From the NCBI GenBank assembly GCA_964016885.1, contig CAXHJY010001587.1, forward strand, positions 1 through 64,000: DNA of 64,000 nt, written 5' to 3'. The position numbers and the translations under genes are program-made. Numbering within the stretch: the stretch's first letter is position 1; each line of letters begins with the position of its first letter. The notes below the pieces were generated by a model that saw only the letters and a list, made by a program, of their open reading frames with translations, was not told the DNA's origin and did no database searches. This stretch comes from Eledone cirrhosa (lineage: Eukaryota). Shown piece by piece: positions 3,921-31,305 of this stretch.

Positions 3921-3960
3921 TACTTTTGAAAAGCAGAAGAACTGCGAAACCGGTAAAGGA
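3921..3960 (+). ncRNA. Minimal hammerhead, family D (UUGAAAA core)
   Basis: tactt-TTGAAAA-gcag-aagaa-ctgc-GAAA-ccgg-TA-aagga. Confidence 0.7.
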
Positions 3961-4749
3961 ACCAAATAAATATATGTATTTAAAAAAAAAATAAGACTCC
4001 AGTTGCATTTTCGATTTCATCTTTTTTTCTTTATACTTTCACTCGTGTAGGACACCTCGGTTATTTTTCCTTTTGTAAAAAAACACTCACTTTCTAATAT
4101 ATATATATATATATATATATATATATGAAAGACGTAAAATAAGAAAATTCTAACTTACTTACTTAAGTTTCACTTCCCGGTCAGTGGCAAATTCAAAAGA
4201 ATCAATCACGTGTCATCGATGTTGCTGGGTTTTTTCCTTTCTTTGGTTTGCCTTTATCCTTCTATGTTGTTCACTTGTCCCCCTCGCTTTACGCGATTTA
4301 CTGGTTCCAATAACCTTTTTTAGTTATTGCTCGCACCAACCTGAGGTATCTGATTTTTAATGCGATGAAATACCAATGAAAGTTGGAAGATCACTGCCGA
4401 AGGACTATTTTTTATCATATGTAACCCATGTGCAACCACGCAGTATTCTTCTTTCTTCTCATGTTTTATATATATATATATATATATATATATATATATA
4501 TATATATATATATATATATATATATGTGTGTGTGTGTGTGTATGTATGTATGTATGTATGTATATATATATGTGTGTGTATGTATGCATATATATATATA
4601 TATATATATGTGTGTGTGTGTGTGTATATATATATATGTGTATATATATATATGTGTGTGTATATATAGCCCCAAGTATCCTCACTAGACTTATTAGTGG
4701 TCAGTGCCAATAAAGATAACATTTATATTTTCGTCCCTTTTGTCATTGA

Positions 4750-5320
4750 TAATGTTGTTGTTGTTGTTACTGTTGTTGTTGTTGTTACTGTTGTTGTTGT
4801 TACTGTTGTTGTTACTGTTGTTGTTGTTACTGTTGTTGTTACTGTTGTTGTTACTGTTGTTGTTGTTGATATATTGCTGTTGTTGTTACTGTTGTTGTTG
4901 TTGTTACTGTTGTTGTTGTTACTGTTGTTGTTACTGTTGTTGTTGATATATTGCTGTTGTTGTTACTGTTGTTGTTGTTGATATATTGCTGTTGTTGTTA
5001 CTGTTGTTGTTGTTGTTACTGTTGTTGTTGTTACTGTTGTTGTTACTGTTGTTGTTGTTACTGTTGTTGTTACTGTTGTTGTTGTTGATATATTGCTGTT
5101 GTTGTTACTGTTGTTGTTGTTACTGTTGTTGTTACTGTTGTTGTTGTTGATATATTGCTGTTGTTGTTACTGTTGTTGTTGTTACTGTTGTTGTTACTGT
5201 TGTTGTTGTTGATATATTGCTGTTGTTGTTACTGTTGTTGTTGTTGATATATTGCTGTTGTTGTTACTGTTGTTGTTGTTACTGTTGTTGTTGTAGATAT
5301 ATTGCTGTTGTTGTTGTTGT
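4750..5320. repeat. Compound (GTT)n / GTTACT minisatellite
   Basis: Direct inspection. Confidence 0.95.
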
Positions 5321-5998
5321 AGCTGAAGTTTAGTGCGTGTGATGTGAACCACCACCACACACATATACCCTCTCTCTCTCTTTCTCTCTCTCTCTTTCTC
5401 TCTCTCTCTTTCTCTCTCTCTCTCTCACACACACGGGCTATTTCTCTCTCTCACACACACTCTCACACATACTCTCACACACACACACTCTCACACATAC
5501 TCTCACACACACACTCTCTCTCACACACACACACACACACTCTCACACATACTCTTACACACACACTCACACATACACTCTCTCTCACACACACACACTC
5601 TCTCTCACACACACATACTCTCACATACACACATACTCTCACACACACACTCACACATACACTCTCTCTCACACACACACTCTCTCTCACACACACACAC
5701 ACACACACACACACACACACACACACACATGAAAGTAAATCAGAAAATACAATCTGGGAATAAGTTGATAATTATCAAATAATTGATGAAATATTGCAAA
5801 GAAAAAAGGTCAGACGTGGACACACTGTGTGTGTGTGTGTGTGTGTGTGTGGTGTGTAGATGTGGGCACACTGTGGGTGTGAGTGTGTGTGATGTGTGTG
5901 TGTGTGTATGTGTATCTGTGTGTGTGTATGTGTGAGAAAGAGCCTGTTTGTGTGTATATGTATATATACGTGTGTGTGTACATATATATGTATATATA

Positions 5999-27405: not shown

Positions 27406-29309
27406 GTAAGATTCTTGCGCAATTTAAATATTTCGTGTTCAAATTACCGAATCATCTCCATGAAGAGGGTTTAATAGAAACCTTGCAGCTCATTCGACTG
27501 AAAAGTAACGAGTTTTCCTGTTTGTAATCTAAAATATTATTTCCTTGGGGCACAACTTCTGTTTTAATACAATTGGTTAACTTCCGGATGTCCATGTACA
27601 TACGTACGGTTTACTGTGTGTTGGTGGTGAGCCGCCATGTTGTATCTGTGGATAAATGTATGGATGTGAGAATGCATGCATTTCTACACATTGGATACAC
27701 ATATTCATATATATTTCATATATATATATATATATATATATATATATATATGAATATATATGAATATATATATATATATATATAGAGAGAGAGAGAGAGA
27801 GAGAGAGAGAGAGAGAGAGAGAGAGAGAGAGAGAGAGAGAGAGCATGTGTGTGTGTGTGTGTTAAACAGACAATGCATTCATTTATATACACATGCAGAC
27901 CCACACACACATACGTGTGTATATATATATATATATATGCATACATGTGTTTATGCAAACATTCATACATACATGTATGCATATATAAAAGCAATTATAT
28001 TTATATATATATATACAAGAGTCCATATATTACATATATATATATATATATATATATATATATATATATATATATATATATATACAGTTTACGCTCCAGT
28101 GCTTCGAATCTGTGTGGATATTCGAGATAGTTCGTAAGTAAAAATGTGTGGGTGTTTAATTAAATGCATTTGTATTAGTATAGAAGTGTATATGTGTGTA
28201 TGTGGATACATGTGTGTATGTGTGTGCGTTAATATGTGGATATGTGTGTATGTGTGTGTGTAGATGTGTGAATGTGTGTGTAGATGTGTGAATGTGTATG
28301 TGTAGATGTGTGAATGTGTGTGTGTGTAGATGTGTGAATGTGTGTGTGTAGATGCATTAATGTGTGTGTAGATGTATAAATGTATTAATGTGTGTGTAGA
28401 TGTATAGATGTATTAATGTTTGTGTGTGTAAATGTATTAATGTGTGTGTAGATGTGTAGATGTATTAATGTGTGTGTAGATGTATTAATGTGTATGTGTG
28501 TAGATGTGTGAATGTGTGTGTGTAGGTGTGTGTGTAGATGTGTGAATGTGTGTGTGTAGATGTGTGAATGTGTGTGTGTGTGTAGATGTGTGAATGTGTG
28601 TGTGTGTGTGTGTGTGTGTGTGTGTCTAGATGTGTGAATGTGTGTGTGTGTGTGTGTCTAGATGTGTGAATGCGTGTGTGTGTGTAGATGTGTGAATGTG
28701 TGTGTTATGGTGAACTCCGCTGACGGCAGAGGATTGTTAAGGAGTCAGTATGAATTCTAAATATGAAAGATGACAACTTTTGATAACCATCTTCCCGCCA
28801 TAACAACCACCAGACAACTATATAATATGTCTGCTGTTTATGTCACTGTTTCTATATGTTTATATATGTGTGTGTGTGTGTGTGTGTATGAGTGTGTGTG
28901 TGTGTGTGTGTAAGTGTGTAGGTGTAAGTGTGTATGTGATGTAAGAATGAAGGTGTGTGTGTGTGTGTGTGTGTGTGTTAAAGATGTGTAGGAAGAAAAA
29001 ATCTGGTGAAGAATTCCGGAAATGCTGTAGGCGAATGGTGGTGGTGGTGGTGGCGGTGGCGGTGGTGGTGTTGTTGGTGGTGGCGGTGGTGGTGGTGTTG
29101 TTGGTGGTGGTGGTGGTGATGGTGGAATTGAAATGAGTTGGTGAGACTCGAACCAAGATGTTTCTAGTTTATTGTTTGTACGTTAGAGTTGTTGTTGTTG
29201 TTGTTGTTGTTGTTGTTGTTGTCCTTCCTGCTTACCTTTTGGGTACATCTGTTAGAAATATCCCTTCATACACAACCACCACCACATGAGTGAGAGGGAG
29301 AGGGAGGGG

Positions 29310-30095
29310 TGAGTGAGAGGGAGAGAGATGTGAGTAAGAGTGAGAGACATTTGAGTGATAGTGAGAGAGATATGAGTGAGAGGGAGAGAGATGTGAGTGA
29401 GAGTGAGAGAGATGTGAGTGAGAGTGAGAGACATTTGAGTGAGAGTGAGAGAGATGTGAGTGAGAGAGAGAGAGAGAGAGATGTGAGTGAGAGTGAGAGA
29501 GATGTGAGTGAGAGTGGGAGAGGTGTCAGTGAGAGTGAGAGAGGTGTGAGTGAGAGTGAGAGAGATGTGAGTGAGAGTGAGAGAGATGTGAGTGAGAGTG
29601 AGAGAGAAGTGAGTGAGAGTGAGAGAGAAGTGAGTGAGAGTGAGAGAGAAGTGAGTGAGAGTGAGAGAGATGTGAGTGAGAGTGAGAGAGATGTGAGTGA
29701 GAGTGGGAGAGGTGTCAGTGAGAGTGAGAGAGATGTGAGTGAGAGTGAGAGAAAAGTGAGGGAGAGTGAGAGAGATGTGAGTGAGAGTGAGAGAGAAGTG
29801 AGTGAGAGTGATAGAGAAGTGAGTGAGAGTGAGAGAGAAGTGAGTGAGAGTGGGAGAGATGTGAGTGAGAGTGAGAGAGAAGTGAGTGAGAGTGAGAGAG
29901 AAGTGAGTGAGTGAGAGAGAAGTGAGTGAGAGTGAGTGAGAGTGAGAGAGAAGTGAGTGAGAGTGAGAGTGAGAGAGATGTGAGTGAGAGTGAGTGAGAG
30001 AGAAGTGAGTGAGAGTGAGAGAGAAGTGAGTGAGAGTGAGAGAGAAGTGAGTGAGAGTGAGAGAGAAGTGAGTGAGAGTGAGAGAGATGTGAGTG
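29310..30095. repeat. ~21-bp GA/GT minisatellite
   Basis: Unit gtgagtgagagtgagagagat/a. Confidence 0.95.
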
Positions 30096-30954
30096 GAAAA
30101 CAAAGTCGATTTCTATTGTAAATTACAGATTATTGATATTTAATATTTTTTCACCAATCCTGTAAACTACAAAAACATAATTATTGTATGTGTATGTGTA
30201 TGTCTGTGTGTGTGTGTGTGTGTGTGTGTGTGTGTGTATGTGTGTGTGTGTATGTATCTGTGTGTGTGTGTATGTGTGTGTATCTGTGAGTGTGTGTGTA
30301 TGAACAGAATGTTAGTATTTGTGGGTGAAACTTTTCTCATTAAGTCCCCACCTTATTCTCGGTAAAATATATTTTTTTCTATTCCTTCAATTTCTTCAAA
30401 ATGTTTCATTAAAACAATCAGATACATATACGTGTATATATGTGTGTGTGTGTGGGGGGGGGGTATAGATAAATAGATAGAAATGTATGTGCATTTCCTT
30501 GTCCAAATTTTACTCTTACAAATAAAAATATTTATACATACTTTTGTATTTATGTGTGTGTTTGTTTGTGTATATAATATATAACTTTAAATTTGTGTAT
30601 ATAATATACAACTTTAAATTTGTGTATATAATATATAACTTTGAATTTGTGTATATAATATATAACTTTGAATTTGTTCCCATCTGGTTATTGGAACAAT
30701 CTTTAATTGTATATATATATATATATATATATATATATATAAGAGATGTATTCGATATGTCTCATATGAAATAATACAGCCAATTTTTCCACACAATACA
30801 TTTAGTTAGCACCCCGAACGTTTAATTAGGATTATACTCACTTATTTCCTAATGTTTGTTGAGTGGGTTGGAATTTGGCCGGAGTATCGCTAAAAGCTTT
30901 CTCGGATGATGTTTATATATATATATATATATATATATATATATATATATATAT

Positions 30955-31305
30955 TAGAAAGTGAGGTTTTTTTTACAAAATGAAAAATAACCGAGGTGTC
31001 CTACACGAGTGAAAGTATAAAGAAAAAGAGATGAAATCGAAAATGCAACTGAAGTCTTATTTTTTTTAAAATATATATATATTTATTTGGTTCCTTTACT
31101 TGTTTCGCAGTTCTTCTGCTTTTCAAAAGGTGAGTTGAGATGGAGGGTCTGTGGTTTTTCTCACAGACCACAGACCCTCCATCTCAACTCACCTTTTGAA
31201 AAGCAGAAGAACTGCGAAACCGGTAAAGGAACCAAATAAATATATATATATTTTTTTTTAAATAAGACTTCAGTTGCATTTTCGATTTCATCTCTTTTTC
31301 TTTAT
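30955..31305. mobile_element. Family D head-to-head fold-back
   Basis: Inverted arms around ~31165, with (TA)n on both sides. Confidence 0.85.
31192..31229 (+). ncRNA. Minimal hammerhead, family D (best copy)
   Basis: cctt-TTGAAAA-gcag-aagaa-ctgc-GAAA-ccgg-TA-aagg. The mirror copy at 31093-31130 has a mutated stem III. Confidence 0.75.

Follow-up and report, generated by a model that had tools for sequence, protein, structure and literature searches.

Covariation from C3-G8 to U3-A8 in natural hammerhead RNAs was first reported by Perreault et al. 2011 (PMC3088659), and Cervera and de la Pena 2014 (PMC4209133) described a U3-A8 minimal hammerhead in the Penelope-like elements (PLEs) of S. 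mansoni with approximately 1,300 hits, which their first descriptor had missed. In this work we describe a hammerhead-like RNA motif, termed family D, that occurs six times in a stretch of 64,000 nucleotides from Eledone cirrhosa (assembly GCA_964016885.1, contig CAXHJY010001587.1, positions 1 to 64,000 of the forward strand; hereafter the window). The six motifs are truncated 3' ends (pseudo-long terminal repeat, pLTR, plus tail) of a high-copy, young PLE. We assign it to the Neptune/Nematis type from domain and motif features; the reverse transcriptase (RT) tree described below had no named reference sequences. On balance, we favor the view that the motif is a slow (if active), dimer-dependent, protein-assisted self-cleaving RNA, predicted to be probably dispensable for insertion. 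The U3-A8 core is already published (2011, and for PLEs 2014) and is not new. What appears from sequence and modelling to be new is the possibility that U3 pairs with A17, a sister family (D2) with C at position 13, and a 316-bp retrozyme-like repeat with U3-A8. A literature search on A13C and U3-A17 in natural hammerheads, covering titles and the starts of abstracts, returned nothing, which does not establish absence from print.

Family D shares with the hammerheads of the S. mansoni Cercyon PLEs (PMC4209133) a type I minimal structure, location in a terminal repeat, U3-A8, a palindromic helix III, occurrence mostly as solo or inverted copies, and being missed by the standard descriptor. The example named S. 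mansoni(4) likewise starts with UUGAAAA. However, family D has approximately 11,600 near-identical copies compared with approximately 1,300 heterogeneous ones, lacks a bulge between A9 and G10.1, and has a 4-bp helix II and a 6-nt palindrome. Position 17 is A rather than the U and G of two S. mansoni examples, and the PLE clade also differs. The hammerheads of Perreault et al. 2011 share the change from C3-G8 to U3-A8, and in the available part of that account they are not tied to PLEs; unlike in them, helix III of family D is not stable and tertiary contacts are not evident. Hammerheads with G17 (Kalweit and Hammann 2013, PMC3884650) also have a cleavage-site base able to pair with position 3 in Watson-Crick fashion, as C3-G17 there and as U3-A17 in family D; the term 'A17' does not occur in that paper.

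The host element shares many features with endonuclease-containing (EN+) Neptune/Nematis PLEs (Craig et al. 2021, PMC8557442). These include the RT, the CX2-5CxxC linker, a C-terminal GIY-YIG and DKG, partial tandems, an inverted 5'-truncated copy, a tail on one end, (TA)n targets, an optional open reading frame (ORF1) joined by frameshift, and a hammerhead near the 3' end. The tail is longer in family D, approximately 65 nt compared with 30-40. The anole Poseidon element PAc (Frangieh et al. 2024, PMC11167929) likewise has a hammerhead near the tail, and its two reverse-transcription start points account for the two 3' ends. In PAc the hammerhead is C3-G8 and overlaps the start of the ORF, whereas the family D motif lies approximately 200 nt before ORF1 in tandem copies.

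The family D motif

A pattern search of the window identified exactly six copies of UUGAAAA-GCAG-loop-CUGC-GAAA, with cores at 3110-3133 (-), 3926-3949 (+), 6279-6302 (-), 6401-6421 (+), 31103-31126 (-) and 31196-31219 (+). Five continue as CCGG-UA, while the copy at 31103 reads CAAG-UA. An earlier reading of this DNA made from the letters alone (the sequence-only reading) had counted the same six copies and the same five continuations, at coordinates that differ from the helix I ends by a few bases at most.

Each copy can be drawn as a type I hammerhead with U3, U4, G5, A6, A7, A8 and A9, followed by GAAA and A17. Helix II is 4 bp long, has no bulge and is closed by a G-C pair (G10.1-C11.1); in the copy at 6401 its strands are separated by only 2 nt. 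Helix I has 3 bp in four copies and 4 bp in two, and helix III consists of the palindrome ACCGGU in five of the six. All six match the minimal core of PLE hammerheads, N3-U4-G5-A6-N7-N8-A9...G12-A13-A14-A15.1...U16.1-H17, with U3, A8 and A17, which upholds the sequence-only interpretation of a minimal type I hammerhead-like motif.

The motif is abundant in its own genome (3.0 Gb). A family D pattern of 29-30 nt with positions 7 and 8 left free has 11,732 exact matches, compared with none for the reversed control, and the motif is therefore not a chance occurrence. Because the pattern is exact outside the freed positions, the genome-wide family D counts are lower bounds. U3-A8 is present in 11,586 of the matches (98.8%). 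Ninety-nine lack U3, all with A8, and 47 have U3 without A8 (23 G, 14 C and 10 U at position 8), while C3-G8 is found in none. A wider genome-wide pattern with C3-G8 and the same palindrome gave two matches, whose sequence is unlike family D, and no variant reaching 5% at positions 3 or 8 is listed in the assembled contig sets X1 and X4. The claim that U3-A8 is fixed in family D thus stands, and no CUGANGA consensus emerged for it elsewhere in the genome. However, all these copies descend from a single young element, whose ORFs diverge by 0.6%, so the uniformity reflects common descent only and is no evidence for compensation.

Covariation of positions 3 and 8 in related elements

The case for compensation is made by related elements. 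From metagenome and genome collections we retrieved 94 loci that encode related proteins; the scan of these loci left positions 3 and 8 unconstrained and required a palindromic helix III. The scan gave 45 hits on the sense strand, two on the antisense strand, and none in five shuffles. The 40 distinct motifs comprise 29 with C-G at positions 3 and 8, seven with U-A, one with A-U, one with G-C, and two weak ones without a pair. Watson-Crick pairing is thus seen in 38 of 40, compared with 23.4 on average and at most 34 in 100,000 shuffles, a randomization that ignores the relatedness of the motifs. In an RT tree of 38 rows (omitting L179 for low coverage, the second hits in L206 and L261, and a weak hit in L241), the U-A state is scattered, with nine parsimony changes of pair state. 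As the two positions change together repeatedly, the sequences support U3-A8 as a true compensation at the level of the superfamily, where it is not very rare. PLE-linked A3-U8 and G3-C8 cores are found at L237:1968 and L243:116, so that all four Watson-Crick forms have been seen.

Families D and D2 group in the tree with L176 (supports 0.93 and 1.00), a C3-G8 element of the same layout and the nearest tree relative with a detected motif, which has no bulge, a 4-bp helix II and a 4-nt palindrome. The nearest outside relatives whose DNA was scanned are 41-49% identical, and the motif scan gave no hit in the outside relatives L173-L175, L178, L253, L254 and L256.

These results modify the sequence-only reading, which took the double change to be a compensation at the family level, rare in nature. 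That it is compensatory is borne out by the relatives, but fixation within the family is descent and no evidence of it, and the change is older than family D, being common to the sister families D2 and D3 described below. Nor is it very rare in PLEs, with seven of the 40 related motifs carrying it in addition to the approximately 1,300 S. mansoni hits reported in 2014 (PMC4209133). That reading also did not recognize the host element, which is described below. The prediction that a strict CUGANGA descriptor misses such motifs was correct, and Cervera and de la Pena say so of their first descriptor (PMC4209133). Descriptors for hammerhead searches in animal genomes should not constrain positions 3 and 8, as nine of the 40 related motifs have a Watson-Crick pair other than C3-G8.

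The host Penelope-like element

Following the sequence upstream of the motif in retrieved loci led, in L001, to the end of a GIY-YIG frame. A genome search with this frame gave at least 150 matches of 98-100% identity, and among the 150 listed, 21 lie in open frames of at least 760 codons. These 21 long frames are contained in 20 genomic regions, which were fetched. In all 20 loci the motif has a 4-bp helix I and lies 1.0-1.4 kb downstream of the long RT and GIY-YIG frame on the same strand, and six (L123, L126, L127, L129, L132 and L142) have an additional same-strand copy upstream. The 775-codon frame matches Pfam GIY-YIG above the cut-off (27.9 compared with 22.6 bits) and RVT_1 slightly under it (28.7 compared with 29.6, E 1e-6). 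It contains ADKG at 154, YLDD, a CX4CxxC linker (CGRSNCGTC at 645) and LIY...CxxC...YIG. The 21 long ORFs have a mean mutual difference of 0.6%, and family D is therefore young. Its closest protein relatives (P0001-P0012) are 49-74% identical, and viral contigs yielded no relative.

In the three tandem copies examined, the motif and tail are followed by a 400-codon ORF1 and then by an overlapping RT-EN frame. A U UUU UUA run at the overlap occurs in all 18 D copies (L132:4492-4579), in four D2 loci (L163, L164, L165 and L166) and in two outside relatives (L173 and L174), and from its sequence and placement is likely a -1 frameshift site. Frameshifting after ORF1 is known for PLEs (PMC8557442). 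Family D copies stop at two fixed points, with or without the tail, in (TA)n. The two end points match the tail signature that two reverse-transcription start sites account for in PAc (PMC11167929). The tandem pseudo-LTR, inverted truncated copy, tail and (TA)n target of EN+ PLEs are all present.

A GIY-YIG fragment near two copies (L025 and L023) was considered as a partner element and rejected, as it carries a C3-G8 hammerhead of its own and has only the (TA)n targets in common with family D. Nor is family D a non-LTR retrozyme. Such retrozymes are head-to-tail non-coding repeats of 150-450 bp, each with a hammerhead, whereas the copies of family D are what remains of a coding element after truncation, namely its ends.

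Sister families and a retrozyme-like repeat

Family D2 has 4,112 pattern matches genome-wide and was seen at L135:7587-7731 and at L163:2790 and 7642. Its RT-EN protein is approximately 53-55% identical to that of D over long matches. The copies seen keep U3-A8, and the palindrome and A17 are also retained; however, D2 has C at the otherwise conserved A13 and so fails the hammerhead core at this position. Another base at position 13 is seen in only 74 matches that have the same 5' core (39 U, 24 A and 11 G). Between D and D2 there are compensatory changes from G-C to U-A in helix II and from C-G to U-A in helix I, and no 30-nt window of the aligned ends is better conserved than the motif, which is identical at 26 of 30 positions compared with 44% overall.

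Family D3 is old and sparse, with five exact matches and one variant (L311 and L315-L319). It has the same palindrome and a different helix II, which shows compensatory changes. All six copies have U3-A8, and position 17 is C in four copies, with one U and one A. In L311 the motif is preceded, approximately 200 nt upstream, by a GIY-YIG fragment with 47% identity to D.

The pattern search that also found D3 gave 1,170 matches (control, four), and the first 100 rows are mostly a 316-bp head-to-tail repeat (L288-L300, L302-L307; G000:C1:6519947 onward). The repeat contains a type I hammerhead with U3-A8, C17, a long helix I and a closed helix III that shows a compensatory change between two subtypes; C17, the closed helix III and the long helix I distinguish it from family D. 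Its sequence looks like a non-LTR retrozyme as described in PMC7229834. A further family (L301, L312 and L313) has a GCCC/GGGC helix II and G8, with C3 in L312 and L313 and U3 in L301.

Predicted cleavage and alternative explanations

If the favored reading is correct, tandem copies would place two motifs in one transcript and their ACCGGU palindromes would pair to form a 6-bp helix III. U3-A8 would then stand in for C3-G8, with scission after A17. The structure would also carry a handicap, in that U3 could pair with A17 and extend helix I, itself only 3-4 bp, across the cleavage site. Dimer folding of the copy at 31196 gives pairing probabilities (P) of 0.94 for helix II, 0.92 for intermolecular helix III and 0.65 for helix I. 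Intermolecular pairing of helix III in two intact copies ranges from 0.78 to 0.92, and the 6-nt palindrome duplex is predicted at -8.3 kcal/mol. Low activity has been reported for PLE minimal hammerheads even as dimers (PMC4209133). A dependence on protein has a precedent in the one reconstituted PLE: its hammerhead was cleaved only in the presence of protein, and insertion in vitro did not require the hammerhead (PMC11167929).

Several observations weigh against this reading. In the dimer model, helix I hardly forms in the 3-bp subtype (P=0.03) or in D2 (P=0.00), and even in the dimer of the best copy (4-bp subtype) U3-A17 pairs with P=0.49 and is also present in the minimum-energy fold; the model is a weak test, because several canonical relatives also fold poorly in it. 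Monomer folding is no better than that of shuffles (z +0.61 to -1.65). Conservation between D and D2 is not confined to the motif but includes other upstream blocks, the hammerheads in related loci are tied to their ORFs by proximity and strand alone, and the RT tree is midpoint-rooted and made from tblastn pieces. From the literature, a pairwise mutational scan of one hammerhead reported strong rescue only for C3G/G8C (PMC9901934). The sequence-only reading missed that A17, as modelled, can pair with U3, much like the G17-C3 pair proposed as the reason that G17 impairs minimal hammerheads (PMC3884650). This pairing and the mutational scan make cleavage after GUA doubtful. A17 is absent from the seven other U3-A8 loci (all C17 or U17) and from the two published S. 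mansoni examples (U17 and G17), but this absence is not significant, as only six of the 29 C3-G8 relatives have A17.

It is possible, although we think it rather unlikely, that the motif no longer cuts. The U3-A8 core would then have passed, in this proposed order, from C17 or U17 (D3) to A17 (D and D2) and to C13 (D2), with the helices kept for RNA dimerization or protein binding or simply carried along. D2 did reach its 4,112 matches with C at a strictly conserved A, the few that differ look like point mutations away from C, and its own fold buries U3-A6 in a competing hairpin. The C17 and U17 of the other U3-A8 loci (C17 in four of six D3 copies), the U17 and G17 of S. mansoni, the trap proposed for G17 (PMC3884650) and the finding that core mutants had no effect on insertion in vitro (PMC11167929) are all consistent with such a loss. 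Set against these, the lack of A17 elsewhere is not significant, a U-A pair at a helix end is less stable than C-G, and tertiary-stabilized hammerheads with G17 still cut (PMC3884650). Moreover, the rest of the core is common to D and D2 despite approximately 45% protein divergence, and the 4-bp helix I of all 20 long-ORF loci looks like a gained pair.

The opposite possibility, an efficient dimeric ribozyme in which U3-A8 compensates fully and tandem transcripts are processed to unit-length RNA for transposition, is improbable. The covariation across relatives, the stable palindrome duplex, and the existence of natural U3-A8 ribozymes with a pair reported active in vitro (PMC3088659) would all fit it, as would the 316-bp tandem repeat, which, if a retrozyme, should depend on cleavage and is also U3-A8. 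However, that repeat differs from family D in having C17, a closed helix III and a long helix I, and in family D helix I is short and predicted U3-A17 pairing competes. PLE minimal hammerheads cut poorly even with C3-G8 (PMC4209133), and in the anole element no reads ended at the cleavage site (PMC11167929). It is very improbable that the likeness to a hammerhead arose by chance in an A/U-rich terminal repeat. In favor of chance, the 5' core consists of a low-complexity U4-G-A4 run and the monomer folds unremarkably, but covariation largely refutes this explanation. Compensatory changes are seen among D, D2 and D3, and shuffles gave no hits. The motif also has the position and strand of the hammerheads of related elements, including L176 with the same layout and C3-G8.

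Insertions and other features of the window

The six motifs are arranged as three inverted pairs bounded by (TA)n. They are therefore not independent and represent at most three insertion events. The first pair (3.0-4.1 kb) lies within a larger inverted duplication (2825-3365 and 3679-4220). One arm of the duplication contains a 5'-truncated PLE 3' end with the pLTR end and tail at 2963..3176 (-), 94% identical to the 3' end of the full-length copy L132, with the motif at 3101..3136 (-; U3-A8, A17, 3-bp helix I subtype by pattern match). By sequence comparison, a second 5'-truncated 3' end, with tail and then (TA)n, occupies 3883..4097 (+). Its motif at 3923..3958 (+) was found by pattern match, with the core at 3926-3949 and the palindromic helix III at 3949-3954, and hammerhead numbering would place cleavage after A17 at 3955.

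The two remaining pairs (6.1-6.5 kb and 31.0-31.3 kb) each have an arm that extends approximately 65 nt past the other; the four arms were delimited by sequence comparison and their motifs by pattern match. The long arm at 6131..6345 (-) has the tail, adjoins (TA)n and contains a motif at 6270..6305 (-; U3-A8, A17, 3-bp helix I subtype). The short arm at 6358..6504 (+) is without tail, and its motif at 6398..6430 (+), which lacks 3 nt of loop II, is likely degenerate, as folding also suggests. Similarly, the long arm at 30955..31165 (-), with tail and adjoining (TA)n, contains a motif at 31093..31130 (-) of the 4-bp helix I subtype with a broken helix III palindrome (CAAG). The short, tailless arm at 31167..31302 (+) contains the motif at 31192..31229 (+), with U3-A8, A17 at 31225 and the 4-bp helix I found in all 20 long-ORF loci. 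The solo and inverted family D fragments in the window are likely inert insertion debris.

A different PLE family, that of L025 with its C3-G8 hammerhead, is represented by a 3' end at 6502-6702 that is joined to the family D insertion at a common (TA)n. Four hammerheads of other families, with canonical C3-G8, a long helix II and A17, are located at 24005-24054 (+), 23792-23841 (-), 19870-19919 (-) and 51438-51482 (-). Broken frames at 62323-63260 (-) resemble a Penelope-like RT by eye, with no Pfam match at E 0.01, and a 306-codon frame at 46671-47591 (-) by eye resembles the C-terminal zinc-binding part of a LINE (long interspersed nuclear element) protein. In an Rfam scan of the window, the matches listed (150 of 527) are microRNA models below their gathering scores.

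Implications for Penelope-like elements

The value of these families is as a test set for what hammerheads do for PLEs. One genome contains the young family D with U3-A8, A17 and near-identical long ORFs, D2 with C13, an old relative with C17, and a U3-A8 retrozyme-like repeat in a monomer-type fold. It is conceivable, although not what we expect, that a PLE lineage amplified past 15,000 copies while its hammerhead lost catalysis stepwise, through U3-A8, a self-blocking U3-A17 and, in the sister family, a fixed A13C, the helices and the palindrome remaining conserved. Alternatively, C13 with A17 may be an active core that has not been described. If stepwise loss did occur, nature itself would provide evidence that PLE hammerheads are retained for dimerization or protein binding and not for cutting.

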